Shown here: positions 4,040 through 36,658 of the stretch, in pieces
Layout: each line of letters begins with the position of its first letter
How positions within the stretch are numbered: the first letter of the stretch is position 1
Source: an uncultured Clostridia bacterium
GTDB lineage: Bacteria > Bacillota > Clostridia > TANB77 > CAG-508
DNA: 59,517 bases
NCBI GenBank assembly: GCA_949927455.1
Contig: CATLEX010000002.1
Coordinates: 1-59,517, forward strand
Reading direction: 5' to 3'
Position numbers and translations under genes: made by a program
The notes under the pieces: model-generated
What the model was told of the DNA's origin: nothing
Database searches by the model: none
The model's input: only the letters and a program-made list of their open reading frames with translations

Positions 4040-4633
4040 ATGGAAAGTAAGTATATTGTAATAGGAGTAGTTGCTTTAGTGGTTTTATTTGTTATTTTTT
4101 ACATAAAAGCAACGATTGATGAAAAAAAGGGTGAGAATAGTGAAGAAAAGCAAAAAGTAAAAGATATTATTAAGAAAGTAGTTCCAGACCCAGAAGCATA
4201 TACAGCGGCTTATGCTATATGGGAAAAAATTGATATTGGTGGTGGCGGAAGGACAATTACAACAACAACGCATTATTGGTATTATGCAGTTGGATTTAAA
4301 ACTGGTTCATTGTATGTTGTACCGTTATCCTTTGATGGAGGAGACATGAGCTATGGAGAGGCAATGAGCTTTACAAAAGAAAATGTTGGAATGGTAAATG
4401 CAAAAGAAGGTGATAGTTGGATGACACTTTATGATTTAGAAAAAAATGAAATGGTTAATATTATTGTAGGACCTAGTAATACAAAAGATGACAAATATCA
4501 TCCTGTTAATATTCAACAAAAGGAGGAATACCAATCGTTTTGTGAATTTGTAAAAGATTTTATGAAAGAAGTAAATGATTATCATCAAGTTACTGTTACA
4601 GGAAAAGTTGGTAAGCCATTACCAAAGAAATAA
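4040..4633 (+). CDS. Hypothetical membrane-anchored protein
   Basis: 197-aa ORF, GGGGGAAG RBS, single N-terminal TM helix. Confidence 0.5.
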   Translation: MESKYIVIGVVALVVLFVIFYIKATIDEKKGENSEEKQKVKDIIKKVVPDPEAYTAAYAIWEKIDIGGGGRTITTTTHYWYYAVGFKTGSLYVVPLSFDGGDMSYGEAMSFTKENVGMVNAKEGDSWMTLYDLEKNEMVNIIVGPSNTKDDKYHPVNIQQKEEYQSFCEFVKDFMKEVNDYHQVTVTGKVGKPLPKK

Positions 4634-15906: not shown

Positions 15907-16392
15907 TTAATCTTTACAATTTTCCCAATTCATGCCATAATTACTTTTGCTTAAATTGTGTTTTATAATATTTTCGTTTTTTTGTTCAAGTGCTTTATCT
16001 ACATTATTCATATAAAATCTTTTTTGTGCTAATTTTTCTTGAACACCATTTAAAGCTTCTCCAAATCTTTGGAAGTGAACCACTTCTCTTTCACGCAAAT
16101 AACGTAAGACATTGACAACATCTGGATCGTCTTTGCATAAATCAATTAATTTTTCATAAGTGGCACGAGCTTTTTGTTCAGCAGCTAAATCTTCTGTTAA
16201 ATCAGCCACAGGGTCACCTTTAACAGCAAGCACAGCAGCAGAAAAAGGAAATCCGCTAGCTGCCTGTGGATACACACCTAAACCGTGGTCGGTGTAATAA
16301 GCAGACAAGCCACCTTTTTCAATTTCTTCAATTGATGCGCCATCTGTTAACTGATGAACTAAAGTTCCAACCATTTCCAAGTGGGCTAATTC
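15907..16392 (-). CDS. cotJC: cotJC (manganese-catalase-family spore coat protein), 3' segment of a split gene
   Basis: Encodes (E)LAHLEMVGTLVHQL...KGDPVADLTEDLAAEQKARATYEKL...LRYLREREVVHFQRF, the C-terminal two thirds of CotJC. It has no start codon or RBS of its own at the family's N-terminus. Confidence 0.85.
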   Translation of the reverse strand, partial: ELAHLEMVGTLVHQLTDGASIEEIEKGGLSAYYTDHGLGVYPQAASGFPFSAAVLAVKGDPVADLTEDLAAEQKARATYEKLIDLCKDDPDVVNVLRYLREREVVHFQRFGEALNGVQEKLAQKRFYMNNVDKALEQKNENIIKHNLSKSNYGMNWENCKD

Positions 16393-16445
16393 GTTTGCTC
16401 CACAAAAGTTATCAACAGAAAAATTAAATTCTAATAAAGATAACT

Positions 16446-18017
16446 TTAATAGACTTTTGGATAAATATTTAGCTCAAAATTTTTGGGATCGGAAATTTTT
16501 TTGATTGCTTTTTCTGTTTTTAAATAAGTAACTTTTTCAATTACTTTTTTCAATAACTCATTTTGATCTTTTGCATTATTTAGAGAGTAATATATTTCTA
16601 CAACACTTTGAATATTGGAAACAATATTTTTTTGATTTGCTAAAATTTTTTTTGTTTTTTGACTTTCTTTTGTCAAGTCTTCAATTGTCAATTGTATTTG
16701 ATGTTGTTCCATTTCTAGTTGATTTTTTCTATCTAGAAATTCTTGTTTCGTATATAAACCGTCTTCTAAAAATTCATGAATTTTGGATTGTTTTTCTTTA
16801 ATAATCAGTAACTTTTTTTCTTCTGCTTGAATTTGATTAGTTATTTTAGATAAATGTAAATGATATTTTTCAAATAGAATATTTTTATTATGATTAATTT
16901 TATAATCTTTTAGCCATTTTTTTAATCCATCTAACAATACTTCTTCTACAATTTCAAATTTAGAACTAATATTATTGCATTCTGGATTAATACAAATAAG
17001 TGTTGCTGCTAATCCCATTTTTTGATAAGGTCTTCGTTGCATTTTGTAGCCACATTTTTTACAATAAATCAAACTTCTTAAAGAATTTTGCTGAATTGTA
17101 TTACTAGGTAGTGGAATATGATTAAGATTTATTATTTCTTGAGCTTTATCCCATAATTTTTTAGGAATAATAGGGGAGTGTAGTCCATCAATTAATAAAT
17201 AATCTTTATTTCTTGGACGAGATTTATAGATAATTCCATTTTCAATTCTTTTTACAGTTTTTCTAGCATTCCATCTAATTTTTCCAATATAAACAGGATT
17301 ATGTAGAATACTTTTAATAGAATTAACAGTCCATTTTTTGCCTTTTCTGGTAGAAATATTTCTGCAATTTAATTCTTTTGCAATTTGATTCATAGAATAA
17401 TTATTTTCTACATATAAGTCAAAAATTAACTTAACAACACGACTTTCAGTAGAGTTTTTTACTAAAGTGTAGCCTTTGTCATTTTTTAGTTTTTCTCTGT
17501 TATACCCATAAGGTGGAATATTTCCAACATATTTTCCTTCTTTCACAGAACTAACTCTTCCACGTTGTAGTCTTCGATTAATAACTTTATATTCTCTTCT
17601 CGACATAAACAAGCCAAATTCAAAATATTCTTCATCACATTCGTCATTTGGATGATAAGTTTTCATAGGAGTGATGATTAATGTATTGGAGTATTGAAAA
17701 GCTTCTGATACAATCCCTTGGTCTTTTGTATTACCTCTAGCCAATCTTTCTACTTCAATGACCAATACAGCTTGCCATTTTCCAGCTTCAACATCTTTTA
17801 AAAGTCTTTGCATTTCTGGTCTTGCTTCGATACTTTCTCCACTTCTGACTTCTTCGTATGTCTCACCAATTTTAATATGATGTTTATAGGCGTATTCTAT
17901 TAGCATCTTTTTATGGCGTTTTAAAGTTTCTCCTTCGCCTCTTGCCTCAGCTTCTTTGTCAGCTCTAGATTTTCTCAAATATAAAGCTGCACATAATCCA
18001 TTTAATTCACTTTCCAA
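16446..18017 (-). CDS. Large serine recombinase (resolvase catalytic domain, recombinase domain, zinc ribbon, coiled coil)
   Basis: N-terminal YLRKSRADKE catalytic-serine region, VLVIEVERLARG, a central recombinase domain, CKKCGYKM...C zinc ribbon and a long coiled-coil tail. TTG start with AGGAGA RBS. Confidence 0.9.
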   Translation of the reverse strand: MESELNGLCAALYLRKSRADKEAEARGEGETLKRHKKMLIEYAYKHHIKIGETYEEVRSGESIEARPEMQRLLKDVEAGKWQAVLVIEVERLARGNTKDQGIVSEAFQYSNTLIITPMKTYHPNDECDEEYFEFGLFMSRREYKVINRRLQRGRVSSVKEGKYVGNIPPYGYNREKLKNDKGYTLVKNSTESRVVKLIFDLYVENNYSMNQIAKELNCRNISTRKGKKWTVNSIKSILHNPVYIGKIRWNARKTVKRIENGIIYKSRPRNKDYLLIDGLHSPIIPKKLWDKAQEIINLNHIPLPSNTIQQNSLRSLIYCKKCGYKMQRRPYQKMGLAATLICINPECNNISSKFEIVEEVLLDGLKKWLKDYKINHNKNILFEKYHLHLSKITNQIQAEEKKLLIIKEKQSKIHEFLEDGLYTKQEFLDRKNQLEMEQHQIQLTIEDLTKESQKTKKILANQKNIVSNIQSVVEIYYSLNNAKDQNELLKKVIEKVTYLKTEKAIKKISDPKNFELNIYPKVY

Positions 18018-18055
18018 AATTTCTCCTTTCTCAATAATATTTTTAGAGTTTAGTA

Positions 18056-18196
18056 TTATTGTAAAGTTTTTTCTTGACTTTTTAATAAAATTGCACTAAT
18101 TTCATTTTTTGTACTTTCTACTTCTTCTTTTGATAAAAAAAAGTCATCATAGATATTAATGATGGCTGCTCCAGAATAAAGTTGTTTTATTTTCAT
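18056..18196 (-). CDS. Small ORF (46 aa) just upstream of the recombinase gene and co-oriented with it
   Basis: ATG preceded by AGGAGGTG. Translates as MKIKQLYSGAAIINIYDDFFLSKEEVESTKNEISAILLKSQEKTLQ. Ends 38 nt before the recombinase start. Below the ORF-track size cutoff. Confidence 0.45.
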   Translation of the reverse strand: MKIKQLYSGAAIINIYDDFFLSKEEVESTKNEISAILLKSQEKTLQ

Positions 18197-18363
18197 ATAG
18201 CACCTCCTAAAAATTGATTTAATTCATTGTATTCAAGAGGATGAGAACTATTCTTTTGATTGGTAATTCTTTACGTATTTATTATAGATTTTCAATGTTT
18301 AAAAAACTTGATAGTTCATATAAAATAAAGAAATTGATTTTTTGGGAGAATTTGTTAAAAATA

Positions 18364-18392
18364 TTGACTTTAAGTCAAAAATGAGGTACAAT
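18364..18392 (+). promoter_or_regulatory. Sigma-A promoter of the V-ATPase operon, with a palindrome over the -35
   Basis: TTGACT, 17 nt spacer, TACAAT. TTGACTT-A-AGTCAA is a perfect palindrome. Confidence 0.5.
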
Positions 18393-18491
18393 TAATTATA
18401 TAAATGCTTTAAAATAGTGAGGTTCACCTTTTAATGCAAACAAAAGTTCTATTTTATAGTATCGATTCTATCATTTGAAAGGAGGAAAGAG

Positions 18492-18806
18492 ATGGAATTT
18501 GAAAGCATTAAGAGAATTATGGAGACAGAAAAAGAAGCTGAGCGTAAAAGGGAAGTTGCAAAACAAAAGGCAAAAGAAATTTTAGAACACGCTCATAATT
18601 CAAAAGAAAGTAATCGTGTTTATTTTAAAGGGCAATTAGAGAGGAAAACGGAAGATTTGCGAAAGGAAAAAAATGAAGAAAACAAAAAAGAGAAAGTAAA
18701 AATTCAAGCACAAACAAATGAAAAATTGAGAAAATTACAGGCAACCTTACATGGAAATTTATCAGAAGCTGTTGATAAAATATTTAGTGAAGTGATAAAG
18801 ATTTGA
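18492..18806 (+). CDS. V-type ATPase small coiled-coil stalk subunit (G/H-like, NtpF-like)
   Basis: 104-aa Lys/Glu-rich helical protein in the first position of the operon. Confidence 0.5.
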   Translation: MEFESIKRIMETEKEAERKREVAKQKAKEILEHAHNSKESNRVYFKGQLERKTEDLRKEKNEENKKEKVKIQAQTNEKLRKLQATLHGNLSEAVDKIFSEVIKI

Positions 18807-18849
18807 GATAAAATCAAAAAATATTTACAGAAAGGGATGATAAAAGGAA

Positions 18850-21239
<2,390 letters not shown>

Positions 21240-21307
21240 AGGTTTAAAATATATTGATTCTTTTTTGAGGGTAAATATAGAAAAGATTAAAAGAAAGGAG
21301 AGTTGGC

Positions 21308-21871
21308 GTGGAAGAGGAAGTGATTTTGAATAAAATTATTGAAGATGCTGAAAAAGAGGCAAATTTGATAATTGCTGAAGCAGAAAAGCAAGCCAAAGAA
21401 ATCGAAGAAGAAAATCGAAATAGAGCGATTAAACAAAGCCAAGAGCAATTTGAAGTGATAAAAGCGCAAATTCAAAGAGATGCAATAGCAGAACTGGAAA
21501 AGGCAGAGTTTGAATCGAGAAGTAGCATATTGGCTGAAAAACAAAAAATTATAGAAATTGTGAAGGAAAAGGTAAAGCAGAAAATTAAAGATTTGTCAGA
21601 AGATGAATATGTAAAAATTATCGATGAGAAAATAAAGCAATATAAAGAGGAAAAACAAGTCAGCATTTTGTTGCCAGAAAAGTGTTATGAAGAAATTAAG
21701 AAAATAGCTACTGGTTATCACATGAATGTGTTAGAAAAGACAGATGAATTTGAAGCAGGTGTGATTGTGAAATGTGGCGATATTGAATATAATTATGATT
21801 TTGAAGAAAATATGAGATTTATGAATGAAGAAATAGAAAAGAAGATTGATACGATTTTATTCAAAGTTTAA
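21308..21871 (+). CDS. ntpE: V-type ATPase subunit E
   Basis: GTG start. Coiled-coil N-terminus plus a globular C-terminus. Operon position fits. Confidence 0.7.
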   Translation: MEEEVILNKIIEDAEKEANLIIAEAEKQAKEIEEENRNRAIKQSQEQFEVIKAQIQRDAIAELEKAEFESRSSILAEKQKIIEIVKEKVKQKIKDLSEDEYVKIIDEKIKQYKEEKQVSILLPEKCYEEIKKIATGYHMNVLEKTDEFEAGVIVKCGDIEYNYDFEENMRFMNEEIEKKIDTILFKV

Positions 21872-21893
21872 AATTGCGAGATTGGAGGTACGT

Positions 21894-22857
21894 ATGGAGA
21901 TATATCCGTATGCAGTAGCAAAAATAAAGGTAAGAGAAAATCGATTATTGAGCAACGACCATTTGAAGCAATTGGCTGAAGAAAGTATGGAAAGAATTGT
22001 GGCAGATTTGATGGAAAGAGAATATCCATTTGATATGGTTGAGAGGTATGAAGATTATGAAATTGTTTTGAAAAAAGCGGAAGAAGACATGTATAAATTG
22101 ATTAAAGAAATTATTGAAGAAAATAATATTGCTGAAATTTTCCTAAGTAAAAATGATTTTTATAATATGAAATTGATTTTAAAATCTAAAGCACAAGGAA
22201 AAGAATATCAAGATAAATTGTTGAATAGTGGAACTGTTTCAAAAGAAGAAATTTCTTTTATTATGGAAAATGAAGAATATGATCGATTAAGTAGAAATAG
22301 AAGACAAGCGATTTTGGATGCACGGAGAGGCTTATCAAAAAACAAAAATGCCATTTATTATTGATAGTATTTTGGATAAGGAATGTTTTGTGCATATGAA
22401 AAAATTGGCAGTGCAGTTGAAAAATGATTTTATCTTAAAGTATATTGAAAAATTAATAGATATTACTAATATCAAAACATTTTTTAGAGTGAGAAAGATT
22501 TACAAAGATCCTTACATATTTGAAGTTTCTTATATGGAAGGTGGAAAAATTACATTAAATAATTTTATGGAAAATTTAGACGAAGAGGATCAAAATTTGA
22601 AATATAAATTTATTGGATTTTCTGATACAATTGCACAGGCAATTGACCATTATGAGAATTTGGATCAATTTTGTGATGATTATATTATGAATTACATGAA
22701 AGATGCCAAATTGAAAGCACTTACAATTGAGCCAATATTAGCATATATTTATGCGAAAAAAACGGAATTTAAAAATATTAGAATTATTTTTTCAGGAAAG
22801 TTAAATCAGGTTACTCCTGAAAAAATAAAAGAAAGGCTAAGGGAAAGTTATGTATAA
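21894..22857 (+). CDS. ntpC: V-type ATPase subunit C (d); needs a +1 frame change at CGG 22323..22325
   Basis: YPYAVAKIKVRENRLL N-terminus in frame A and ...IIDSILDKECF...PILAYIYAKKTEFKNIRII in frame A+1. The two track ORFs (21846..22364 and 22318..22857) join as ...AILDA-GEAYQK... Confidence 0.7.
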
Positions 22858-23176
22858 AATAGCTGTGGTAGGAGATAAAGAATCGATATTTGGATTTTCT
22901 GCAATCGGAATGGATGTGTATCCTGCTTATGAAGAAGAGGATGTGAAAGAAATCATACCCAAATTGAAAAAAGAAAATTATGCTATTATTTATATAACAG
23001 AAAATGTAAGTATCAAAGCTCAGAAGTATTTGACCAAATTAAAGACTAATAAAATTCCAGCAATTGTGACCATACCAAGTAATACAGGAAATATGAATTA
23101 TGGAGAAACTAGGATTAAAGAAATGGTACAAAAAGCAGTTGGAATTGAAATTAATTTTAAAGAAAGTAATTCTTAA
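22850..23176 (+). CDS. ntpG: V-type ATPase subunit F
   Basis: MYKIAVVGDKESIFGFSAIGMDVYP, typical of subunit F. Confidence 0.8.
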   Translation: MYKIAVVGDKESIFGFSAIGMDVYPAYEEEDVKEIIPKLKKENYAIIYITENVSIKAQKYLTKLKTNKIPAIVTIPSNTGNMNYGETRIKEMVQKAVGIEINFKESNS

Positions 23177-23186
23177 AAAGAAGGGG

Positions 23187-24968
23187 ATGAAAAGATTGAA
23201 ACAAGGGATTATAACAAAAGTATCAGGACCTTTGGTGATTGCAAAAGGAATGGAAGAAGCCAATATGTTTGATGTAGTAAAGGTATCTGATAAAAACTTA
23301 ATTGGTGAAATCATTGGAATGAATGGAGATAGTGCTTCTATTCAAGTATATGAAGAAACATCTGGTGTTGGGCCTGGTGAAAAAATTGTGCAAACTGGTA
23401 TGCCACTTAGTGTTGAATTGGGTCCAGGAATGCTAACCTCAATTTATGATGGAATTCAAAGACCATTAGATAAAATTTATCAAAAAACAGGCAAAAATAT
23501 TGAAAGAGGTGTTGAAGTAAATAGTATTGATAAAGAAAGAAAATGGACTTTTGTGCCAAAGAAAAATGTAGGTGATACGGTAGAAGAAGGAGAAATTATA
23601 GGAATTGTACAAGAAACAAAAGTGATTGAGTGCAGAATTATGGTTCCAACAGGAATTCATGGAGTGATTAAAGAAATTAAGTCAGGTGATTATACAGTTG
23701 TTGACCCAATATGTATTGTAGAAGATCAAAAAGGAAAAAGACATGAAATTCAAATGATGCAAAAATGGCCAGTTAGAAAACCAAGAAAAGTAGCTAAAAA
23801 ATTAAATCCAGACGATATGTTAATTACTGGGCAAAGAATTATTGATACCTTTTTCCCAATTGCAAAAGGTGGAACGTGTAGTATTCCAGGTGCTTTTGGT
23901 AGTGGGAAAACAGTTATTCAACATCAATTAGCAAAATGGGCGGATGCTGATATTATTATTTATGTTGGTTGTGGAGAACGTGGCAACGAAATGACAGAAG
24001 TTTTAACAGAATTTCCAAATTTGATTGATCCACGTACTAAAGATTCGCTTATGAACCGTACTGTTTTGATTGCGAATACTTCAGATATGCCAGTTGCAGC
24101 AAGAGAAGCATCAATTTATACAGGAATTACAATTGCAGAATATTATCGTGATATGGGATATAATGTAGCGTTAATGGCAGACTCTACTTCAAGATGGGCA
24201 GAAGCTTTACGAGAAATGAGTGGAAGATTGGAAGAGATGCCTGGAGAAGAAGGATATCCTGCTTATTTAGGTTCTAGAATTGCAGAATTTTATGAAAGAG
24301 CTGGAAAAGTAGAGTGTTTAGGCGGAGAGGGCAGAATTGGAACATTAACCGTCATTGGAGCTGTATCTCCAGCAGGTGGTGATATTTCAGAACCAGTTAG
24401 CCAAAGCTCTCTAAGAATTGTTAAAGTTTTTTGGGGATTAGATGCAAGTTTAGCTGCTAAAAGACATTTTCCATCTATTAACTGGTTAACGAGTTATTCA
24501 TTATATAAAGAACAAGCTGAAAAATGGGAAAGAGAAAATATTAGTGAAGAATTTGTTACTTTGAAAAATGAAGCTATGGCAATTTTACAAGAAGAAGCAA
24601 AATTACAAGAAATTGTGCAATTAGTTGGTGTAGATGCAGTTTCTAGCAAAGACCGTGTAACATTAGAGGTTGCTAGAATTTTAAGAGAAGATTATTTGGC
24701 ACAAGATGCATTTGATGAGGTAGACGCTTTTGCTTCTAGTCATAAACAAGAAAGAATTTTGAAAATGATTTTTAAGTTTTATGATCGAATGAGTAGAGCA
24801 ATTGAAGCAGGAATTGATGTAGAAGAATATTCAAAATTACCGTATATAGCGAGAATTGGTAAAGCTAAATTTATTGAAGAAGCAAAAGTAGATAGTGAAT
24901 TTGATGCGATTGAAAAAGCAATGGATAGTGAAACTGACGAAATTATGGAAAAAGGAGGTCTAGCTTAA
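23187..24968 (+). CDS. ntpA: V-type ATPase catalytic subunit A
   Basis: Walker A GAFGSGKT and ADSTSRWAEALREMSGRLEEMPGEEGYPAYL. The start could be ATG 23187 or TTG 23196. Confidence 0.95.
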   Translation: MKRLKQGIITKVSGPLVIAKGMEEANMFDVVKVSDKNLIGEIIGMNGDSASIQVYEETSGVGPGEKIVQTGMPLSVELGPGMLTSIYDGIQRPLDKIYQKTGKNIERGVEVNSIDKERKWTFVPKKNVGDTVEEGEIIGIVQETKVIECRIMVPTGIHGVIKEIKSGDYTVVDPICIVEDQKGKRHEIQMMQKWPVRKPRKVAKKLNPDDMLITGQRIIDTFFPIAKGGTCSIPGAFGSGKTVIQHQLAKWADADIIIYVGCGERGNEMTEVLTEFPNLIDPRTKDSLMNRTVLIANTSDMPVAAREASIYTGITIAEYYRDMGYNVALMADSTSRWAEALREMSGRLEEMPGEEGYPAYLGSRIAEFYERAGKVECLGGEGRIGTLTVIGAVSPAGGDISEPVSQSSLRIVKVFWGLDASLAAKRHFPSINWLTSYSLYKEQAEKWERENISEEFVTLKNEAMAILQEEAKLQEIVQLVGVDAVSSKDRVTLEVARILREDYLAQDAFDEVDAFASSHKQERILKMIFKFYDRMSRAIEAGIDVEEYSKLPYIARIGKAKFIEEAKVDSEFDAIEKAMDSETDEIMEKGGLA

Positions 24969-26339
24969 ATGATAAAAGAATATAAAACAATAAAAGAAAC
25001 AGCAGGACCCTTGATGTTGGTTGAAAAAGTAGAAGGTGTAAAATACGATGAAATTGGAGAAATCAAACTTCAAAACGGAGAAACAAGATTATGCAAAGTT
25101 TTGGAAGTAACTGAAGATGCTGCATTGGTTCAATTATTTGAAAGTAGTAGTGGAATTAATTTAAAAGAATCAAAAGTTCGATTTTTAGGAAAAGGTTTGG
25201 AATTTAGCGTTTCTAAAAATATTTTAGGAAGAGTTTTTAATGGAATGGGAAAAGCAATTGATGGTATGCCAAATGTAATTGCGAATAAAAAAGTAGACAT
25301 TAATGGAAAACCAATTAATCCAGCAGCTAGAATTTTTCCATCTGAATTTATCCAAACAGGTGTGTCTTCTATTGATGGATTGAATACTTTAGTTATTGGA
25401 CAGAAACTGCCAATTTTTTCTGGTTCTGGACTTCCTCATGCGGAATTGGCTGTACAAATTGCAAAGCAAGCTAAAGTACTAAAAGAGGATACAAAATTTG
25501 CGGTTGTTTTTGCAGCGATTGGAATTTCATTTGAAGATGCTGAATATTTTACCAAAAGTTTAAGAGAAACAGGAGCGATTAGTCGTTCTGTTATGTTTAT
25601 CAATTTGGCAAATGACCCAGCAGTAGAACGTATTTCAACACCTCGTATGGCACTAACAGCAGCAGAATATTTGGCCTATGAGGAAAATATGCAAGTATTG
25701 GTGATTATGACTGATATGACCAATTATGCAGAAGCACTTCGTGAAGTTTCAGCAGCAAGAAAAGAAATTCCTGGAAGAAGAGCGTATCCTGGTTATTTGT
25801 ATACAGATTTATCAACGATTTATGAGCGTGCTGGTAAGATTAAAGGAAAAGAAGGTTCTGTGACTATGATTCCAATTTTAACAATGCCAGAAGACGACAA
25901 AACACATCCTGTACCAGACTTAACAGGTTATATTACAGAAGGGCAAATTGTTTTAAGTAGGGATTTAAATAAACGTGGAATGATGCCGCCAGTAGATGTT
26001 TTGCTTTCTTTATCGCGTTTGAAAAATGAAGGAATTGGAAAAGGTAAAACAAGAGAGGACCATTCTGGTGTTTTAAATCAGTTGTTTGCATCATATGCAC
26101 GTGGAAAAGATGCCAAAGAATTAATGGCAATTTTGGGAGAAAGTGCACTTTCAGAATTGGATCGAATTTATGCAAAATTTGCAGATGATTTTGAAAAGGA
26201 ATTTATTGCACAAGGTTTCGAGACAAATCGTAGTATTGAGGAAACGTTAAATATCGGTTGGAAATTGCTTTCTACTTTACCAAAACAAGAATTAAAGCGT
26301 ATTAAAGATGTGTATATTGAAAAGTATTTTCAAAACTAG
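24969..26339 (+). CDS. ntpB: V-type ATPase subunit B
   Basis: [35 protein letters not shown]. Stop and start abut ntpA. Confidence 0.95.
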
Positions 26340-26364
26340 AATTTGAAGAAGGGAAGAGATAATT

Positions 26365-26997
26365 ATGGCAGTTTTAAATGTAAATTTAACGCGTATAGAA
26401 AGTATCAATATGAAAAAATCTTTAAAAACAGCGCAAAAAGGGCATAAACTTTTAAAAGATAAACTAGATGAATTGATTAAAAAGATATTAGAACTTGTGA
26501 AAAAAAATCAAGAACTTCGTAAACAAACAGATGAAATGCTAAAAAGTACGTATCAGAATTTTAGACTAGCCAAAGCAGTTATTGGAGAAAGTTATATGGA
26601 GGAAGCACTAATTATTCCAAGAAAATCTGTTTCAGTTGAAATTGGTGAGACAAGTGTAATGAGTGTAAAAATTCCGAAGTTTTATTTTCAAGAAAAAGAA
26701 TGTGAAATAGAAAATAAAGCATTGTATGGTTTTGCGTATACGACATCTGAGTTAGATCGAGCAATTGAGAGTTTTGCAGAAGTTTCAGAAAAATTATTAG
26801 AACTTGCACAAAATGAAAAAGCAATTGAATTAATATCTGCGGAAATTGAGAAAACAAGAAGACGCGTTAATGCCATTGAAAATGTTACGATTCCAAATTA
26901 TAAAGATACAATTAAATATATTGGCTTAAAATTATCAGAAGATGAAAGAGCTTCGACTTCTAGACTTATGAAGATTAAAGAGATGCTTATAAAATAA
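26365..26997 (+). CDS. ntpD: V-type ATPase subunit D
   Basis: Long helical central-stalk protein with GHKLLKDKLDEL and RRRVNAIENVTIP motifs. Confidence 0.9.
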   Translation: MAVLNVNLTRIESINMKKSLKTAQKGHKLLKDKLDELIKKILELVKKNQELRKQTDEMLKSTYQNFRLAKAVIGESYMEEALIIPRKSVSVEIGETSVMSVKIPKFYFQEKECEIENKALYGFAYTTSELDRAIESFAEVSEKLLELAQNEKAIELISAEIEKTRRRVNAIENVTIPNYKDTIKYIGLKLSEDERASTSRLMKIKEMLIK

Positions 26998-27009
26998 AAA
27001 TTTGATAAA

Positions 27010-27043
27010 AAATGAGGTAGATATTAAATACCTTATTTTTTTG
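27010..27043 (+). terminator. V-ATPase operon terminator
   Basis: AAATGAGGTA-loop-TACCTTATTT followed by a T-run. Confidence 0.55.
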
Positions 27044-27079
27044 TTTTTGTTACAATTTGTATAATAAATAATTTATAAA

Positions 27080-27295
27080 TTACAACTTAGTAGGTGCGTA
27101 TTCTTCTGTTCCAATATCATTCAAAATAGCTTTTGAATTTTGATCAGGCATTCCAAAACGTTGTGATAAATATCTTAAAGAAGCACCCAGCTCTCCATCT
27201 GGTCCGCCATACTGACTTACAATAACTTTTGCCAATTCTACATTTCTATTTTTGATGTTAATTGGATATTGTAAATTTCTACTATAATTCCACAT
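27080..27295 (-). CDS. cotJC: cotJC, 5' segment of the split gene (genuine coding ends near 27101; 6 foreign codons and a stop follow)
   Basis: MWNYSRNLQYPINIKNRNVELAKVIVSQYGGPDGELGASLRYLSQRF...LNDIGTEE is the CotJC/Mn-catalase N-terminus. The ATG overlaps the cotJB stop. Confidence 0.85.
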   Translation of the reverse strand: MWNYSRNLQYPINIKNRNVELAKVIVSQYGGPDGELGASLRYLSQRFGMPDQNSKAILNDIGTEEYAPTKL

Positions 27296-27561
27296 TACCT
27301 GTTAAACCCCCTTTGCCATGGCCATAAATTTTGAGCCCATTCCCAGCTCTCCATAACTGTTTCCACAGTTAGAGGACCATACATTTTTTCAAATTCTTTT
27401 GTTACTTCTTCTAATTTTTTGACATAATCATTGTGTAAACCAAGTGCTTTTTTATCATTTGGATGAGTGTCCAAATATAAAGTCAAGTCATTCACATAAA
27501 ATTTATATTCCATAATTTTTCTTAGTAATTTTTCTCGATTGTCATTTTGAAGATTTTCCAT
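27295..27561 (-). CDS. cotJB: Spore coat protein CotJB
   Basis: FYVNDLTLYLDTHPNDKKAL...YGPLT...WPWQ motifs of CotJB. Confidence 0.85.
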   Translation of the reverse strand: MENLQNDNREKLLRKIMEYKFYVNDLTLYLDTHPNDKKALGLHNDYVKKLEEVTKEFEKMYGPLTVETVMESWEWAQNLWPWQRGFNR

Positions 27562-27773
27562 TATAGCTTAAATCCTCCTTTTCCATAATTCTTTAAAAAT
27601 TCGATTTCTCGCATAGAATCACCAGGAGAATAGGGACTAAATAACTCAGGAAAAATAGTACCTTTTTTTAATGCTTCTTCAGGAGAAAAAGTTTTTCTTA
27701 ATGTTTGATTCATCACATATGCGTGCCCAAACATTGCATTTTTTGGAAAAAATCCTTGATTGTTTTCTATCAT
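27561..27773 (-). CDS. cotJA: Spore coat-associated protein CotJA
   Basis: FGHAYVMNQTLRKTFSPEEALKKGTIFPELFSPY motif. Start moved to the ATG after AGGAGGG. Confidence 0.75.
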   Translation of the reverse strand: MIENNQGFFPKNAMFGHAYVMNQTLRKTFSPEEALKKGTIFPELFSPYSPGDSMREIEFLKNYGKGGFKL

Positions 27774-27916
27774 GTTTATCCCTCCTAGTAATACATTATG
27801 TAAATTCAAACAAAGTTGTGAATCGTTTTTAATTTATCCAAAAATAAAACGGTAAAAGTCTGATTTATCAAGGCTTTTATGCTTTTTAAAAAAGACAGGA
27901 TTTACAGAGGAAAGTA

Positions 27917-28012: not shown

Positions 28013-31000
28013 ATGAAGTTAAAAAAATTACTTGCTATTTTTTTACTTACAACACTTTTATTGGCACAATTTAGTTGGGTTAGCCTAAGTAATATTGTAT
28101 ATGCTACAGAAAGTGGAATGGAAACTAATTTCCATTATGCTCAACTTGGGACAGAAGCTAAAAAAATATACCAAGCAATGTATAAAATGTACATAGATGG
28201 TATATTTAAAACAGGAACACAAGGTTATGACCTTGTACAAAATGGTATTTTTACAGAAGAAGAAATCAGAGAATATGAAAAAGGGAATAACACATTGACT
28301 TCAGCGATGGATGCTGCAAGATATGCTTTTTATGCAGATTATCCTGGAATTTTCTATGTTAATTTCCAAAAAGTTAGTATCAGAATAACAAAAGGTGCAA
28401 GTGGTGAATACCATGCTTACATCGGTTCTGGAAGATTTGCTAATTATTACACAGATGGTTTTACGAGTACACAACAAGTAGAACAAGCGATTGCAGAATT
28501 TGATAATGTTGTTAATGAAATTGCTGCAAAAGCTGAAAATGTAAAAGTAGAAGCAAATCAAAATAAAACGGTAGAACAAGTTAAATTAGTTCATAATGAA
28601 ATTATTAATCATACAGGTTATAGATTAGAGAGTGATTGTAAGGAAGGAAATGAAGGATTTATTTCGACACCTTATGGAGCGCTTGTAGAAAAAGAGGCAG
28701 TATGTGAAGGATATGCAAGAGCATTCAAAACAATTTTAGATAAAGTTGGAATGAATAATATTCTTGTACAAGGAACTCATCAAAGTGAAGGTTCAGCAGC
28801 AGTTCCTCATATGTGGAACTATGTTGAAATTGAAAAATCGACAGTAGCTAGAACAGGAGAAAAAGTTTGGTATGCAGTAGACTGTACACTAGATGATCCA
28901 TTTTTAAGAAACCCACATATTGATACAACCCAACCAGAATATAATCCAGGAGACGATATCACAGAAGGATTTGAAAACACAAGATATTGTTTAGTGGGAA
29001 CAGAAACCATGAACAAAGAACATGTTGTCTTAGAATCAGTTGAAGCAGCAGGATTTTATACATTTAAATATCCAGAATTATATTCAGAAGATTATGGAAT
29101 TGATAATGTAACAAATGTTAATGGATTGTTAGTAAAATTCAAACAGGAAGGAACTGAAACAGAAGAATACAAAGCAGGAGATTTTTATATCAGTTATAAC
29201 AATAAGGGATATGCAGAAGCAGTAAAAGAAGGAAAATATATCTTGATGAAATATCATGAATATAGACCAGGAGATGATATATGGATTGAAGGCAAGTGGG
29301 GTTATATGAATCCAGAATTATATGCACCAGGAGCCTTTCAAGATTATGGAGATCATATTTATATTATCGTTCCAAATGGAGAATATGTTGAATTTGCTGT
29401 AACGACATTAGCACCAAGTGAAGGGCTAGCAGGTTATACGTATCAAGGTGATGAATCTGACTTTGTAGCACAATCAGGAAAATTATACAATCCAAATGGA
29501 ATTTATAAAAGTAAGCCATACATTAAAAAACAAACACCAGCACCAACAGCAACACTTTCAGTTGGACCTACTTATCATGTAGATGTTACTTATGATGATG
29601 ATTTAGTGTTAGCAGAAGGAGCAACAGAAGTAGGTTATACATTAGATTCAACAGGACCAACAGGTGCAGATGAGGCAGAAATAACAAATTTTGTTTTTGA
29701 TGGAAAAAATAGAGTAACATTTGATTTAAAATTCAGTAAAATGTGGGCTGACGATGGAGCAACGTACCATATTTATTTAACAGGTCTAGTTGGAAAAAAT
29801 AGTGGAAAAGCACCAATGGAAATAAGCTATGGAGCAATTAATACAATAGCATGTTCATTTAGTATGAATAAAGCAAAAAATTGGGAAGTATTTGGTAGAC
29901 CAACTCTTCTTGAAAATGAAGACCTTTCAATGAATGGTTGGCAAACAAGTGACGGAGAAGACGTTTCTGATAAATTAAAAAGTAGAATTGCTTTAGTAAC
30001 AACAAGAACTACAAAAACTGAAAGAGAAACAATGAATGATTTAATGGAAAACGAATTAGGCAGTCAAGAATTAGTAACAAGTGAAACCTATAATATTTCG
30101 TTAAATGTATGTAAAAAATATGTTGTAAAAACTGGTCATAGACTAAGAATATCTTTAGGATTTCCAGAAGGATATGGTCCAGAAGATGCAGGTGTTACTT
30201 TTAAAGCATATCACTTTAAAAGAGATAATGCTGGCAATGTAACAGGTGTTGAAGAAATTCCTTGTGTTGTAACACCATATGGATTAATTATAACTTGTGA
30301 TTCATTCAGTCCATTTGCGATTGCAGTTGTTGAAAATGACGGAACTGTACCACAAAATAAGGCAATTGTAGTATCAGCTACAGAAGGTGGTAATATTGAA
30401 GGAGCAAATCGTGAAGAAGGAAATATTGTTACTCTTACAGAAGGTGCATCTAGAACTCTTAATGTAAGACCAGATGCAGGTTATGAGATTGAAACAATTA
30501 CGGTTTGTGGAAAACAAATTGATGTTAGCAATAAAGAGACAATGGATGTTACTGTAAATTATAGTGATATAAATTCAGAAAACTGTATTGTTGAAGCAAC
30601 ATTTGTTGCAAAATCAGTTGTGCAAGAAGAAGAAGCTAGAGGAGAAACAGTTGCTGTTCCAGTTGCTGTTCCAGCAGAAATAACAATGCAAGATACAGCT
30701 TCAGTAAAAGTAGGAGAAACATTAACAATTCAACCAACTGTAACTGAAAATGCAGAAGTTCAAACATATCAATGGTATAAAAATGATGTTAAATTAGATG
30801 GAAAAACAGACAAAGTATTAGAAATAGAAAATGCTCAAGAAGCAGATAGTGGAAATTATGTATTAGAGGTTACAACAACAGTTGGAACAACAAGTGAAAA
30901 AGCTACAAGTAAATCTTGTACAGTTACAGTTGCAAGTGAAATTCTACCAACAACTCCAAGTTTTGCTACCTCAATTGAAAAATTGACAAACCAACCAGTA

Positions 31001-31765
31001 TATCCAGGAGACGAGATTGAAGTAGCTGTTAGAGTTCATGATTTAACAGCAATAGATAAAGGATTGATTACATTAGGTGGCAAATTAGATTATGACAAAA
31101 ATGTTTTAGAAAAAATCAGTATTGAAAATCAAAATGGTTGGGATATTGCAATGAATGAAGATAATTTGAAATTTGTAACAGATAACAATCATTATGTAAC
31201 AGGAAATAGCGATGTTTTCAAAATAAAATTCAAAGTAAAAGAAACTATTGACCAAGATACAAAAACAGTTATTACTGTAAGAGATATTGTAGCAAGTAAT
31301 GGTGATATAGAAGTTCCATCAAATGATACAAATCTAGAAATTAATATTACAAAAAAATTAGAAGGAATTACTTCTGATGTATATGAAATAGGAGAGAATA
31401 TTATTTCAAGAATTGCACCAGGTACAACTTTTAGTAAATTTAAAACAAATGTGCAAACACAACAAGATTTAATTCTTATGGATAAAACTGGAAATGTACT
31501 TGGAAATGATGCTGTGCTTGCAACAGGAATGACATTGAAAGTAGGAGATAAATTACAATTCACATTAGTTGTAACAGGAGATATTGATGGAAATGGTGAA
31601 TTAGGAATTACAGATCTTGCTAAATTAAAATTACATTATATTGAACAAGAATTGTTGACAGGAATTGCTTTGAAATCTGCTGATGTAGACGGAAATGGCG
31701 AAATCACAATCACAGATTTAGCACAACTTAAGTTAGCATTAATTGGTTTGATGGAAATAAAATAA
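28013..31765 (+). CDS. Secreted 1250-aa multidomain protein: signal peptide, transglutaminase-like Cys-protease core, Ig-like modules, cohesin-like module, C-terminal dockerin
   Basis: Signal peptide MKLKKLLAIFLL...VYA. Core CEGYARAF...PHMWNYVEI...AVDCTLDD (Cys 28703, His 28808, Asp 28880). Ig-like QWYKNDVKLDG...DSGNYVLEV. Cohesin-like block near 31000..31350. Dockerin duplicate GDIDGNGELGITDLAKLK / ADVDGNGEITITDLAQLK near 31571..31750. Confidence 0.8.
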   Translation: MKLKKLLAIFLLTTLLLAQFSWVSLSNIVYATESGMETNFHYAQLGTEAKKIYQAMYKMYIDGIFKTGTQGYDLVQNGIFTEEEIREYEKGNNTLTSAMDAARYAFYADYPGIFYVNFQKVSIRITKGASGEYHAYIGSGRFANYYTDGFTSTQQVEQAIAEFDNVVNEIAAKAENVKVEANQNKTVEQVKLVHNEIINHTGYRLESDCKEGNEGFISTPYGALVEKEAVCEGYARAFKTILDKVGMNNILVQGTHQSEGSAAVPHMWNYVEIEKSTVARTGEKVWYAVDCTLDDPFLRNPHIDTTQPEYNPGDDITEGFENTRYCLVGTETMNKEHVVLESVEAAGFYTFKYPELYSEDYGIDNVTNVNGLLVKFKQEGTETEEYKAGDFYISYNNKGYAEAVKEGKYILMKYHEYRPGDDIWIEGKWGYMNPELYAPGAFQDYGDHIYIIVPNGEYVEFAVTTLAPSEGLAGYTYQGDESDFVAQSGKLYNPNGIYKSKPYIKKQTPAPTATLSVGPTYHVDVTYDDDLVLAEGATEVGYTLDSTGPTGADEAEITNFVFDGKNRVTFDLKFSKMWADDGATYHIYLTGLVGKNSGKAPMEISYGAINTIACSFSMNKAKNWEVFGRPTLLENEDLSMNGWQTSDGEDVSDKLKSRIALVTTRTTKTERETMNDLMENELGSQELVTSETYNISLNVCKKYVVKTGHRLRISLGFPEGYGPEDAGVTFKAYHFKRDNAGNVTGVEEIPCVVTPYGLIITCDSFSPFAIAVVENDGTVPQNKAIVVSATEGGNIEGANREEGNIVTLTEGASRTLNVRPDAGYEIETITVCGKQIDVSNKETMDVTVNYSDINSENCIVEATFVAKSVVQEEEARGETVAVPVAVPAEITMQDTASVKVGETLTIQPTVTENAEVQTYQWYKNDVKLDGKTDKVLEIENAQEADSGNYVLEVTTTVGTTSEKATSKSCTVTVASEILPTTPSFATSIEKLTNQPVYPGDEIEVAVRVHDLTAIDKGLITLGGKLDYDKNVLEKISIENQNGWDIAMNEDNLKFVTDNNHYVTGNSDVFKIKFKVKETIDQDTKTVITVRDIVASNGDIEVPSNDTNLEINITKKLEGITSDVYEIGENIISRIAPGTTFSKFKTNVQTQQDLILMDKTGNVLGNDAVLATGMTLKVGDKLQFTLVVTGDIDGNGELGITDLAKLKLHYIEQELLTGIALKSADVDGNGEITITDLAQLKLALIGLMEIK

Positions 31766-31781
31766 AATCAAAGGAGAAACT

Positions 31782-32585
31782 ATGAAGAAGATAGTAAAAA
31801 TAGCATTCATTTTATATAGTATCATATGTGTTGCATCTTGCGTGTATGCAGCTTCATGTAATATGAGTTTACAAACTGCAAAAAATGAATTTGATAAAGC
31901 TGAGGAATTTGTTGTAGATGTTAATATTTCTAATATTCAAGCTGAAAAGGGAATTATTGCATTAGGAGCAACCCTTGAATATGATAAAGATAGTTTATCA
32001 TTAGTAGGTATGTCAGGACAAAATAGTTGGGCAAATCCTTCTTATAATGAAGCAAATGGAAAACTAGTTACTGATAGAGGAAGTTTGACTTCTAGTGATG
32101 AAACAGTTTTTAAGATTACGTTTAAAGTGAAGGAAAATAGCAAATCAAATACAACAATTACATTAAAAGACATTGCTGCTTCAAATGGAATAGAAGAAAT
32201 TAAAGTGTCTAACCTTACGAAAACAATCAATATAAAATTAGCAACAACAGAGCCAAATCCAAAGCCAGAAAATACAACAAATACAACTAATAATGGTAAT
32301 ACAAATACAAGTAATAACAATGGTGGTGGCAATAGTAATAACAATACGAGCCAAAATTCAAATACGAATAATGGAAATGGTGGTTCAGGAACTAACAATT
32401 CAGGATCAAGTTCAAATCAGAATAAAAATATAGTGGCAAATACACAAAAAGATTCAACTAAAAAAGGAATTTTGCCAAAGACAGGAGCTACAACAAATGT
32501 TATATTAATCGTACTAGGTGGAGCACTTGTTTTAGTTGCAGTATTGTATGTTAGAATGAAATTGCTAGATGAGAAAATGAAATAA
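31782..32585 (+). CDS. Cell-wall-anchored cohesin-domain protein (LPXTG sortase substrate)
   Basis: Signal peptide, cohesin-like domain (EFVVDVNISNIQAEKGIIALGATLEYDKDSL...), Asn/Thr/Gly/Ser-rich linker, LPKTG (32472..32486), then a hydrophobic helix and a basic tail. Confidence 0.8.
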   Translation: MKKIVKIAFILYSIICVASCVYAASCNMSLQTAKNEFDKAEEFVVDVNISNIQAEKGIIALGATLEYDKDSLSLVGMSGQNSWANPSYNEANGKLVTDRGSLTSSDETVFKITFKVKENSKSNTTITLKDIAASNGIEEIKVSNLTKTINIKLATTEPNPKPENTTNTTNNGNTNTSNNNGGGNSNNNTSQNSNTNNGNGGSGTNNSGSSSNQNKNIVANTQKDSTKKGILPKTGATTNVILIVLGGALVLVAVLYVRMKLLDEKMK

Positions 32586-34128: not shown

Positions 34129-36658
34129 ATGAAGAAAGTCAAATTTGATATTCAAGGTATGACTTGCAGCAGTTGTCAAACGCATGTGGAAAAAGCAGTT
34201 AAAAAGCTAAGTGGAGTGCAAAGTGTTAATGTTAATTTAATTGGAAATAATATGGTTGCTCAATATGATGAGAATTGTTTAGATAATGAAGCTATTATAA
34301 AAGCTGTTGTTGACGCTGGTTACGGAGCAATTATGAGTGATGTTTCTGAACAAATGAAAAAAGCAAAAATTCCAAGCGAAGATGAAAATATAAAAGCAAT
34401 GAAGCAAAGGCTAATTTTGTCTATTGTTTTTTGGATACCACTTATGTATATTGCCATGTATCATATGTTTTATGAATGGTTTGGTTTGCCAATTCCGCAA
34501 GTTATAAATCGTATGTTTCATGGTGCAGAAAATGCACTTGCTTTTGGATTTACGCAGTTTTTATTGGTTTTACCAATTATGTATCTGAACCGAAATTATT
34601 TTATTATAGGGTTTAAACGACTGTTTAAAAAAAGTCCTAATATGGATTCTCTAATTGCAATTGGTAGTACTGCTGCTATTGTCTATGGAATTTATGCCAT
34701 TTTTCAAATTGGTTATGGATTGGGGCATGAAAAAATAGATATAGTTCAGAAATTTTCCATGGATTTGTATTTTGAATCAGCTGGAACAATCTTAACTTTG
34801 ATTACAGTTGGAAAATATTTAGAAACAAAGTCCAAAGGGAAGACAAGTGATGCTATTCGTAAATTAATTGATTTGGCACCAAAAACGGCAATTGTTTTAA
34901 GAGAAGGAAAAGAAGTTCAGGTTGAAGTAGAAGAAATTGCAATTGGTGATATTGTGATTATAAAACCTGGTGGTGGCATTCCAGTAGATGGAACGATTGT
35001 AGAAGGAAACACTTGGATTGACCAATCTAGTATTACAGGTGAGAGTATTCCTGTGGAGAAATCAGTTGGTGATGCAGTTGTTTCAGGAACTATGAATAAA
35101 AATGGATTTTTCAAAATGAAAGTGACAAAAGTTGGGAAAGATACGACACTTGCACAAATTATTAAATTAGTAGAAGAGGCTGGAAATTCGAAAGCGCCAA
35201 TTGCAAGAATTGCAGATAAAGTAAGTGGTGTATTTGTACCAGTTGTGATTATGATTGCTGTGCTTGCTTGTATTTTTTGGATTTTGCAAGGGCAAAGTTT
35301 TGAATTTGCGCTAAGTATAGGAATTGCGGTTTTGGTAATCTCATGTCCATGTGCTTTAGGGCTTGCGACACCTGTTGCGATTATGGTTGGGACTGGAAAA
35401 GCAGCAGAAAATGGAATTTTGGTAAAATCGGCAGAAAGTCTAGAAAATTTGCATTTGGTAGATACAGTTGTGCTTGACAAAACAGGAACAATTACTAGAC
35501 GGAAAGCCAAAAGTTGTAGGAATGGTTAGTCAGATAAAAGAAAGAAAATTATTGCAAATTGTAGCAAGTTTAGAACAGAATTCGGAACATCCATTGGCAC
35601 AAGCAGTGCTTGAAAAAGCTAAGTTAGAAAACATTGAATTATTAAAAGTTGTAGATTTTTCGAATATACTTGGGAGAGGTGTTCAGGGGAAGATTGAAGG
35701 CGAAGAGTATTTTGCTGGAAACACCTCTTTTATGAAGGAAAATAAGATTGATATAAAAGAAATAAGTAGAAAACTTCATGAGGAGCGAACAGTAATTTTT
35801 GTTGGAAATAAAGAAGAAATACTTGGCGCCATTGAAATTTCAGATGAAGTAAAGAGTGATAGTTTGGTAGCAATTCAGACTCTGCAGAAAAAAAAGATAG
35901 AAATAGTTATGCTGACTGGTGATAATCAGTTAGTAGCAAATGCAATTGGAAAAGAACTTGGAATTAATCAAGTAATTTCCGAAGTTTTACCACAGGATAA
36001 GGAAAAAGAAGTGGAAAAATTGCAGAAGAATGGTAAGAAAGTGGCATTTGTAGGAGATGGTATTAATGATAGTCCTGCTCTTGTGAGAGCTGATGTGGGG
36101 CTTGCGATAGGTAACGGAACAGATATTGCAATTGAAAGTGCTGATTGTGTTTTGATGAAAAATAGCTTGCTAGATGTAGTAATTGCAATTGATTTGAGTA
36201 AAGCTGTGATACGTAATATAAAAATGAATTTGTTTTGGGCGTTTTTTTATAATGTGATTGGAATTCCGATTGCGGCAGGTGTATTTTATTTGAATTTTGG
36301 ATGGAAGTTAAATCCAATGCTTGGGGCAGCTGCAATGAGCTTAAGCTCTGTTTGTGTTGTAATAAATGCGCTTAGATTACGAAAATTCAAAAGTAAAAAA
36401 ATAGGGATAGATGCACACATCAATCCAAAATATGAAATAAAAAAGGAGGAAAGCATAATGAAAAAAACAATTTTGATTGAAGGAATGCAATGTAATCATT
36501 GCAAAATGAGTGTGGAAAAGGCACTAGGTAGCATAGAAGGTGTAACAAAAGTGGAAGTAAGCTTGGAGAATAAAAATGCGATCATTGAGAGTACGAAAGA
36601 AATTCAAGACAGCGAAATTAAGAAAGTGATTGAAGAAGCAGGGTTTGAGGTGAAGTAA
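34129..36658 (+). CDS. copA: Copper-translocating P1B-type ATPase CopA with N- and C-terminal HMA domains; needs a +1 frame change at CGG 35500..35502
   Basis: GMTCSSC, TGES, CPC and DKTGTIT in frame A. GKPKVVG..., MLTGDN, GDGINDSPAL and the second HMA domain (GMQCNHC) in frame A+1. Confidence 0.85.

Follow-up and report, generated by a model that had tools for sequence, protein, structure and literature searches.

The spore coat gene cotJC is split in two in an uncultured gut Clostridia bacterium by a 10,711-bp element that carries a large serine recombinase (LSR), and the two parts can be joined into one uninterrupted reading frame. We examined a 59,517-nt stretch of DNA from this organism (assembly GCA_949927455.1, contig CATLEX010000002.1, positions 1 to 59,517; referred to here as the window), in which Pfam matches identify the interrupted coding sequence as the cotJC gene of a cotJA-cotJB-cotJC operon, with both fragments in the same orientation. 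We consider it likely, at a probability of roughly 0.7, that the insert is a skin-like, non-phage element of phage descent and that the LSR, together with an accessory factor, excises it to rebuild cotJC, probably specifically in the mother cell. This interpretation is built on data on the split and its joinability, the recombinase family, the architecture of the attachment (att) sites, the site specificity found across the family, and the selection acting on both halves of the gene.

cotJC is interrupted after codon 65 and can be rejoined in frame

The reading frame of the cotJC 5′ fragment continues past codon 65 into six element-derived codons (YAPTKL) and ends at a stop at 27080, and the GAA that stands just before the 3′ part (16392..16390) is a copy of the last codon of the 5′ part. 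An earlier sequence-only reading of the window had described this split on the minus strand, an in-frame join giving a protein of about 226 aa, and a 523-aa large serine recombinase 53 nt inside the junction beside the 3′ segment, and had taken the whole for a skin-like intervening element. All of these coordinates were confirmed when the window was re-read, the joined open reading frame (ORF) is 678 nt long (225 aa plus stop), and the skin-like interpretation is supported by both the anatomy and the comparative data. The same reading had proposed comparing the gene with uninterrupted relatives, aligning the joined protein over the junction, and looking for an intact paralog. Uninterrupted 678-nt cotJC genes of relatives align with the joined gene base for base and free of gaps, at 82-84% nucleotide identity, and uninterrupted 225-aa CotJC orthologs share 93%, 89%, and 86% amino acid identity with its product. 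These orthologs sit in intact cotJABC operons with neither a recombinase nor an ATPase gene nearby. Taken separately, the 5′ fragment is 92% identical in amino acids to codons 1-65 of an uninterrupted ortholog and the 3′ fragment is 93% identical to uninterrupted orthologs. For the joined protein, the match to Pfam Mn_catalase covers residues 1-203 (E = 4.6e-50), and the alignment with the solved Mn catalase PDB 6j42 continues across the junction (DIAIEEFSHLEMVG in 6j42, DIGTEELAHLEMVG in the window). The ExxH metal-binding motif is complete only after joining, with TEELAH spanning the junction. Judged by its sequence, the joined product is a full-length member of the CotJC/Mn-catalase family, with putative catalytic activity. 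No further cotJC paralog is present in the 59-kb window.

The same structure was found in every same-species contig inspected that spans either junction. We aligned 17 same-species contigs, which are 99.5-100% identical where aligned, and an identical LSR was found on 21 contigs and an identical CotJB on 23, from independent ENA, NCBI metagenome-assembled genome (MAG), and Logan assemblies. Since the same junctions recur in independent assemblies, the arrangement is not an assembly artefact. Every contig read that has the identical CotJB carries the interruption, and no empty site was seen; given this, and given that the reconstituted protein is absent from a very large protein collection (see below), the element looks fixed in the sampled population.

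Both halves of cotJC are under strong purifying selection. The ratio of nonsynonymous to synonymous divergence (dN/dS) is 0.05-0.10 for the 5′ fragment and 0.04-0.09 for the 3′ fragment, at dS 0.7-1.6, with neither stops nor indels in either fragment. The references were uninterrupted orthologs and a relative (locus L041) whose cotJC is interrupted by a different element, and the low dN/dS persists even between the window lineage and L041, both of which are interrupted. A gene that is never reassembled would not stay so constrained, and we therefore conclude that cotJC must be rebuilt. This is the strongest, albeit indirect, argument for precise excision.

The recombinase belongs to an SprA-like group

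The insert contains the LSR, a candidate directionality factor, a V-type ATPase operon, and nothing else (Table 1). No phage structural, lysis, replication, or transfer genes were found in it among its ORFs and Pfam matches, and for this lack of phage genes the insert does not qualify as a functional temperate prophage. The LSR gene adjoins attR, with its stop codon 53 nt from the junction, and its product matches Pfam Resolvase (E = 2.7e-14) and Recombinase (E = 1.6e-25) and PHROG 95 integrase (E = 2e-96). The match to Zn_ribbon_recom is weak (E = 7e-4, below the gathering cut-off); residues C319, C322, C342, and C347 are invariant across 26 homologs, as are Y13, R15, and S17, which align to the YLRRSR of SprA. 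The best homolog of solved structure is SprA/YokA of SPbeta (9dxh), aligned to residues 13-516 (E = 1e-54, about 32% identity). The N-terminal motif is also shared (YLRRSRQD...GEDTL in SprA, YLRKSRADKE...GETL in the window LSR), which bears out the remark in the sequence-only reading that this N-terminus is a variant of the SprA group. Considering its resolvase, recombinase, zinc-ribbon, and C-terminal coiled-coil regions, the LSR is assigned to the SprA-like clade. Its closest relatives in the databases are only 51-56% identical. The gene is intact, and within the species it carries 2 synonymous and 0 nonsynonymous single-nucleotide polymorphisms (SNPs).

The att sites share one architecture across the family

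The attL and attR sites of the window have only GAAT in common, a short core within imperfect inverted repeats about a central GA. The corresponding attB is the cotJC sequence GATATTGGTACAGAAGAATTAGCxCAC, coding for D-I-G-T-E-E-L-A-H, which we take to be the ExxH metal-ligand motif of Mn catalases. When the attP of the recombinase family (described in the following section) was rebuilt from the element-side halves, a near-perfect palindrome was obtained, TTGACAACATCATGGTAC-AGAAGAATGT-GTACCATGATGTTGTCAA, centred on the GA of GAAGAAT. A distal TGATA-like motif adjoins GGxAC in attB and lies 5 bp further out in attP, and the same attP-attB offset is reportedly a feature of the model of LSR attP/attB recognition that Rutherford et al. 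put forward in 2013. The reconstructed attP of the window, TTGATAAC-TTTTGT-GGAGC-AAACGAATAC-GCACC-TACTAA-GTTGTAA, keeps the family architecture, and the same GA is also the centre of its best dyad, in which 12/24 positions are complementary against a null mean of 6.6. Both of its arms have 6 nt between the distal TTGAYAAC and proximal GGxxC motifs where the family has 5 nt, and this matched N6 spacing suggests co-evolution with a divergent enzyme rather than decay. The predicted products of excision are an attB junction, ...GGAACAGAAGAATTAGCCCAC... (GATATTGGAACAGAAGAATTAGCCCACTTGG), and an attP junction, ...GGAGCAAACGAATACGCACC... (TTTTGTGGAGCAAACGAATACGCACCTACTAAG).

Table 1. Features of the cotJ locus and of the element inserted in it (window coordinates).
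Feature	Position	Strand	Remarks
cotJA	27561..27773	-	70 aa from ATG at 27773; mechanical ORF reaches TTG at 27809; Pfam CotJA E = 4.4e-14
cotJB	27295..27561	-	88 aa; Pfam CotJB E = 2.1e-27
cotJC 5′ fragment	27101..27295	-	codons 1-65 (...LNDIGTEE)
attL	27075..27125	-	cotJC half-site ...GATATTGGAACAGAAGAA + element half-site TACGCACCTACTAAGTTGTAA; core GAAT 27103..27100
Insert	16390..27100		10,711 bp
V-type ATPase operon	18492..26997	+	Pfam matches; gene calls on sister contigs
V-ATPase D	26365-26997	+
V-ATPase B	24969-26339	+
V-ATPase A	about 23196-24968	+
V-ATPase F	22850-23176	+
V-ATPase C (ntpC)	21894-22364, 22318-22857	+	two ORFs
V-ATPase E	21308-21871	+
V-ATPase K	20748-21239	+
V-ATPase I	18850-20745	+
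V-ATPase G/H-like	18492-18806	+
Divergent intergenic region, orf46/V-ATPase operon	18197..18491		sigmaE-like match GAATAG-N14-AATACAAT, minus strand
orf46, candidate recombination directionality factor	18056..18196	-	46 aa; 39 nt upstream of LSR gene, same strand
Large serine recombinase (LSR)	16446..18017	-	523 aa; TTG start; catalytic motif YLRKSR (Ser17)
attR	16365..16415	-	element half-site TTGATAACTTTTGTGGAGCAAACGAA + cotJC half-site TTAGCCCACTTGGAAATGG; core GAAT 16392..16389
cotJC 3′ fragment	15907..16389	-	codons 66-225 + stop (LAHLEMVG...; LAHLEMVGTLVHQL...)

A recombinase family dedicated to one codon position of cotJC

The LSR belongs to a large family that is dedicated to cotJC and includes the integrases of real phages, which the sequence-only reading had not seen. 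A scan of genome contigs with the single LSR protein gave no match and an alignment-based scan was required; run on one genome per species, it yielded 80 loci with 43-54% identity to the window LSR (loci are cited below by L numbers). Hosts are uncultured Clostridia and MAGs assigned to Tissierella and Thermoanaerobacterales, as well as the cultured Caproiciproducens galactitolivorans BS-1 (L093), Intestinibacillus massiliensis (L071), Anaerovorax odorimutans DSM 5092 (L069), Bianquea renquensis NSJ-32 (L070), and Anaeromonas frigoriresistens (L065). A cotJC fragment is present at the recombinase locus in 73 of the 80 genomes, mostly right beside the gene, and the break codon is identical at all but three loci (L028, L044, L060), the N-terminal fragment ending at residue 65 and the C-terminal fragment beginning at residue 66. 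Related elements for which both ends are available measure 3.3-11.1 kb, mostly 3.7-6 kb, and carry assorted small cargo.

The elements are found in both orientations with respect to cotJC, with the LSR beside the 3′ fragment in 26 cases and beside the 5′ fragment in 47. As attP directly follows the LSR stop codon in both groups, the asymmetric core is flipped relative to the recombinase gene between them. L030 and L041, close relatives of the window organism with CotJ proteins 78-91% identical to its own, carry elements in the orientation opposite to that of the window element, and their LSR is only 51% identical to the window LSR, which points to turnover of elements at the cotJC site.

Full-size phages share the same enzyme and site. 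In Paenibacillus larvae phage phiIBB_Pl23 (LSR 44% identical; attP at about 3575-3650 of L095) and in the human gut phage contig MT835739 ("Bacteriophage sp.", 46 kb; LSR 47%), attP lies just after the integrase gene; in L094, the cotJC-type attP is at about 4550-4620. Among the phage genomes of IMG/VR, a large group of about 45 kb (L113-L190) has LSRs of 46-49% identity and an intact palindrome after the integrase gene, and several prophage-end contigs are fused to cotJC at the shared break codon. These findings predict that cotJC is the integration site of phages with such an attP. Because attP and LSR are shared with full phages, the small elements are assigned as reduced descendants of temperate phages that integrate in cotJC, an origin like that proposed for skin.

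Further breaks were observed in the 3′ part of cotJC, both in some strains of the window species and in other genomes. In L003 (7727-12090) and L007, which are of the window species (sample SRR30000192), the 3′ fragment is split again after about its residue 75. The second element encodes a small resolvase as well as large serine recombinases of 507 and 519 aa, which are adjacent to each other, and cotJC is left in three pieces. A further break lies near residues 35-39 of the C-terminal fragment in L016, L022, L033, L036, L044, and L062 and near residue 71 in L032, L042, L069, and L088; L091 is also broken. Extra recombinase genes are often found near these additional breaks, and cotJC seems to have at least three hot spots of recombinase insertion.

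A small ORF upstream of the recombinase is a candidate directionality factor

The intact 46-aa orf46 belongs to a family of proteins of roughly 45 aa (consensus M..EEYK...T.IRI.DD.I...E....I...IISL.IK.), members of which precede the LSR by 30-180 nt in 39 related elements. When the window was left out of the profile, orf46 still came first among 1133 six-frame segments (E = 4e-4). A single-sequence structure model gave two helices and was uninformative. By its size and by its position upstream of the LSR, the place taken by directionality factors such as GirX, orf46 is most likely the directionality factor.

Between orf46 and the divergent V-ATPase operon, the sigmaE-like match lies about 18 nt upstream of the orf46 ribosome-binding site and may represent a promoter. 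Among the relatives, a CATA-type -10 element (CATACAyAT, CATAAATT or AATATACAT) occurs in three sequence-divergent subgroups about 25 nt before the start of the small ORF, and the strict CATA motif is found at the fixed position -25 in 25/39 relatives against a background of 6.5%. Upstream of cotJA in the window there is a -10-like motif, CATAATGT. A scan for sigma-70 promoters and terminators was uninformative in this AT-rich DNA. In the majority subgroup of relatives (L023-L052), a terminator-like hairpin, CTCAAGACAAG...CTTGGGTATTTTTTT, is located about 60-30 nt upstream of the small ORF and directly precedes CATAAATT, so that the ORF appears to be insulated from upstream transcription.

The element carries a complete V-ATPase operon

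The cargo of the element, likewise absent from the sequence-only reading, is a complete nine-gene V-ATPase operon. One gene, ntpC (Pfam AC39), has a frameshift near 22321-22327 that leaves overlapping ORFs covering profile positions 1-156 and 158-339; every same-species contig has the split, and the gene is intact in two relatives, L108 (324 aa) and L106. In the A and B subunits, most SNPs within the species are synonymous (23, with 5 nonsynonymous), and the pump may thus still be under selection.

No V-ATPase genes were found in the 160 related loci (80 genomic and 80 viral). The nearest VatB relatives (93% and 86% identity) are in ordinary chromosomal neighbourhoods that have neither cotJ nor a recombinase, which indicates that the operon is cellular and typical of the lineage and that it ended up inside an excisable segment. 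Comparison with relatives gave no trace of how it entered the element, since neither the genes around cotJ nor those around the V-ATPase operon are conserved in them. An apparent synteny with L108 (IleRS...V-ATPase...HTH-P-type-ATPase) was rejected as spurious, since the flanking genes are only 29-36% identical, compared to 86% for VatB.

Proposed mechanism and alternative explanations

Mother-cell expression of cotJ is known from B. subtilis. In the mechanism that we propose, the SprA-like LSR would bind attL and attR and, together with a small directionality factor (most likely orf46), exchange strands at the central GA within the shared GAAT. This would release a 10,711-bp circle with the recombinase, orf46, and the V-ATPase operon, and would leave an intact, in-frame 225-aa cotJC after cotJA and cotJB. 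Judging from skin, SPbeta, gin, and skinCd, this factor would probably be produced in the mother cell alone, from a promoter of the sigmaE/sigmaK type, and the element with its cargo would be retained on the chromosome of the forespore, which is the germ line. We thus infer that excision takes place, that orf46 directs it, and that it is specific to the mother cell; developmental excision had the same standing in the sequence-only reading.

Several observations weigh against this mechanism. A collection of about 15 billion proteins does not contain the exact reconstituted 225-aa protein, and one scan of JGI metagenomes, using a degenerate pattern for attB, attP, attL, and attR, yielded neither an attP circle nor an empty site from this species. 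The scan returned only uninterrupted cotJC from unrelated taxa, and the species seems to be absent from that collection. If only terminal mother cells excise the element, the excision product would not be expected in assemblies. In addition, the attP palindrome of the window is weaker than the family consensus, and orf46 has no match to SprB or other known directionality factors in PDB (including SprA-SprB fusion chains) or PHROGs, so its assignment is positional. The AATACAAT promoter match in the window is weaker than the CATA motifs of the relatives, which resemble the sigmaE/sigmaK -10 consensus of the B. subtilis and C. difficile literature and are putative promoter elements of that type.

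Alternatively, excision may be that of an ordinary mobile element or phage remnant, serving transfer or responding to stress rather than forming a step in mother-cell development, with cotJC being just a highly conserved landing site and carriers being without CotJC for most of the time. We find this unlikely, though worth serious consideration: genuine temperate phages that have the same attP use close relatives of the LSR as their integrases, the case for sporulation control of excision is an indirect one, and a passage of PMC12122855 cites cotJC mutants as free of any gross spore defect. However, genes for phage functions, replication, or transfer are missing from the element, all same-species contigs read contain it with no empty site among them, and a conserved CATA-type -10 precedes the small ORF. 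Moreover, purifying selection on both halves, even between interrupted lineages, requires regular reconstitution under conditions where CotJC matters.

It is also conceivable, at low probability, that the element is a fixed developmental cassette. The rebuilding of cotJC would then delete the host V-ATPase from the mother-cell chromosome, and this loss would itself matter physiologically late in sporulation, in addition to the repair of the coat gene. If true, an ion pump would be subject to programmed somatic elimination or to copy uncoupling. We found no paper that treats V-type ATPase, serine recombinase, and sporulation together. If excision occurs only in a terminal cell, the cargo is inherited like any other chromosomal gene and no link to sporulation is required.

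A dead insertion, in which the LSR no longer excises and the cotJC fragments are relics of a permanent pseudogene, appears improbable. The attP arms of the window are less palindromic than the family consensus and two other genes of the window, ntpC and a P-type ATPase gene, are frameshifted, as might be expected of decay; yet both fragments are free of stops and indels and keep dN/dS at 0.04-0.10 with dS at 0.7-1.6, the LSR and orf46 are intact, and the same N6 spacing change on both attP arms suggests co-evolution with the enzyme. Finally, a chimera of a V-ATPase contig and a cotJ contig, produced by assembly or binning, might be suspected in metagenome-type data but can be set aside, as neither junction differs among the same-species assemblies inspected that span it, across different samples and pipelines (ENA, NCBI MAGs, Logan).

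Other features of the window

Nearly all window genes of at least 150 aa are on the plus strand, the exceptions being the cotJ/LSR/orf46 block and one MFS transporter gene, and the GC skew of the window is strongly positive. Beside cotJA (28013-32585) there is a gene for a 1250-aa protein with weak Ig-like and dockerin-domain matches (sister contigs), and a gene for a cohesin-domain protein; together they point to a surface system resembling a cellulosome in a Clostridium-like genome with 30% GC. A heavy-metal P-type ATPase gene at 34129-36658 is broken into two overlapping ORFs (HMA + E1-E2, 466 aa; Hydrolase + HMA, 396 aa) and is, besides ntpC, the second frameshifted transporter gene in 59 kb. 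At the gathering threshold Rfam detected no RNA family in the whole window, and even ileS (9242) has no T-box match in front of it.

Comparison with known intervening elements

Intervening elements are known in sigK (skin), spsM (SPbeta), spoVFB (vfbin), spoVR (vrin), gerE (gin), and yabG (yin) (PMC4191935, PMC5595907, PMC5025042, PMC10747680), and cotJC joins this short list of sporulation genes as one with a well-defined site-specific element. The family described here ranges from full phages to minimal 3-kb elements, all dedicated to one codon position of cotJC in many gut Clostridia, and its breadth implies that developmental DNA rearrangement is likely common in uncultured gut spore formers. 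It also explains why cotJC is annotated as a pseudogene or as two small genes in these genomes. The natural LSR/attP/attB triplets, with their candidate directionality factors, are possible tools for genome engineering. The V-ATPase cargo indicates that such elements can hold large cellular operons, which would be stably inherited if excision is confined to a terminal cell.

As in skin of B. subtilis sigK (SpoIVCA) and of C. difficile (CD1231 and CD1234), a sporulation gene of the mother cell is split by an element with its own LSR, whose gene lies at the element edge, and excision rebuilds the ORF, which for cotJC is our proposal. In C. difficile, control of the small factor CD1234 by sigmaE and SpoIIID confines skin excision to the mother cell (PMC5025042). 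Control of this kind is also what we consider most likely for the window element. Unlike skin, the element of the window targets a coat gene rather than a sigma factor, so that no regulatory cascade depends on it, and its cargo is a V-ATPase operon rather than phage remnants. The integrase of the C. perfringens sigK-intervening phage PhiS63 is 36% identical to the window LSR. SPbeta in spsM (SprA and SprB) has in common with our element the YLRxSRxD...GExTL N-terminus and the logic of an LSR and a small factor that rebuild a spore-envelope gene (PMC4191935, PMC5499854); however, SPbeta is an active 134-kb phage, whereas the window element has no phage genes, and orf46 has no detectable similarity to SprB/YotN of SPbeta.

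The gin element of B. cereus gerE uses GirC and GirX, the latter a mother-cell-controlled directionality factor of 42 aa with no known motif (PMC5595907). Like the window element, gin is a non-phage intervening element with a tiny factor (42 aa for GirX, 46 aa for orf46) that lacks a known motif, but it has three recombinases rather than one and a different target and cargo, and its excision was demonstrated experimentally, whereas that of the window element is our deduction. The phages with a cotJC-type attP (phiIBB_Pl23, MT835739, and the IMG/VR genomes of about 45 kb) also resemble the window element, with LSRs that are 44-49% identical and a palindromic attP after the integrase stop; unlike these full-size genomes, the window element keeps only the recombination module and a cellular operon.

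Interruption of cotJC itself has been noted before. It is a frequent target of phage and transposon integration according to Abe et al. (2013), as cited in bioRxiv 10.1101/2021.11.22.469490, and a skin-like element interrupts it in Laceyella sacchari (Galperin et al., 2022, bioRxiv 10.1101/2022.02.25.481979). In the passages that mention them, which are brief, these cases involve the same target gene and phage- or transposon-related, skin-like insertions. We found no description in the literature of the shared codon-65 site, of the att architecture with its attP palindrome, of the small-ORF family, or of the V-ATPase cargo. Thus the class of mechanism and cotJC as a target were already known, and what is new is the family-wide picture and the presence of a cellular operon as cargo.

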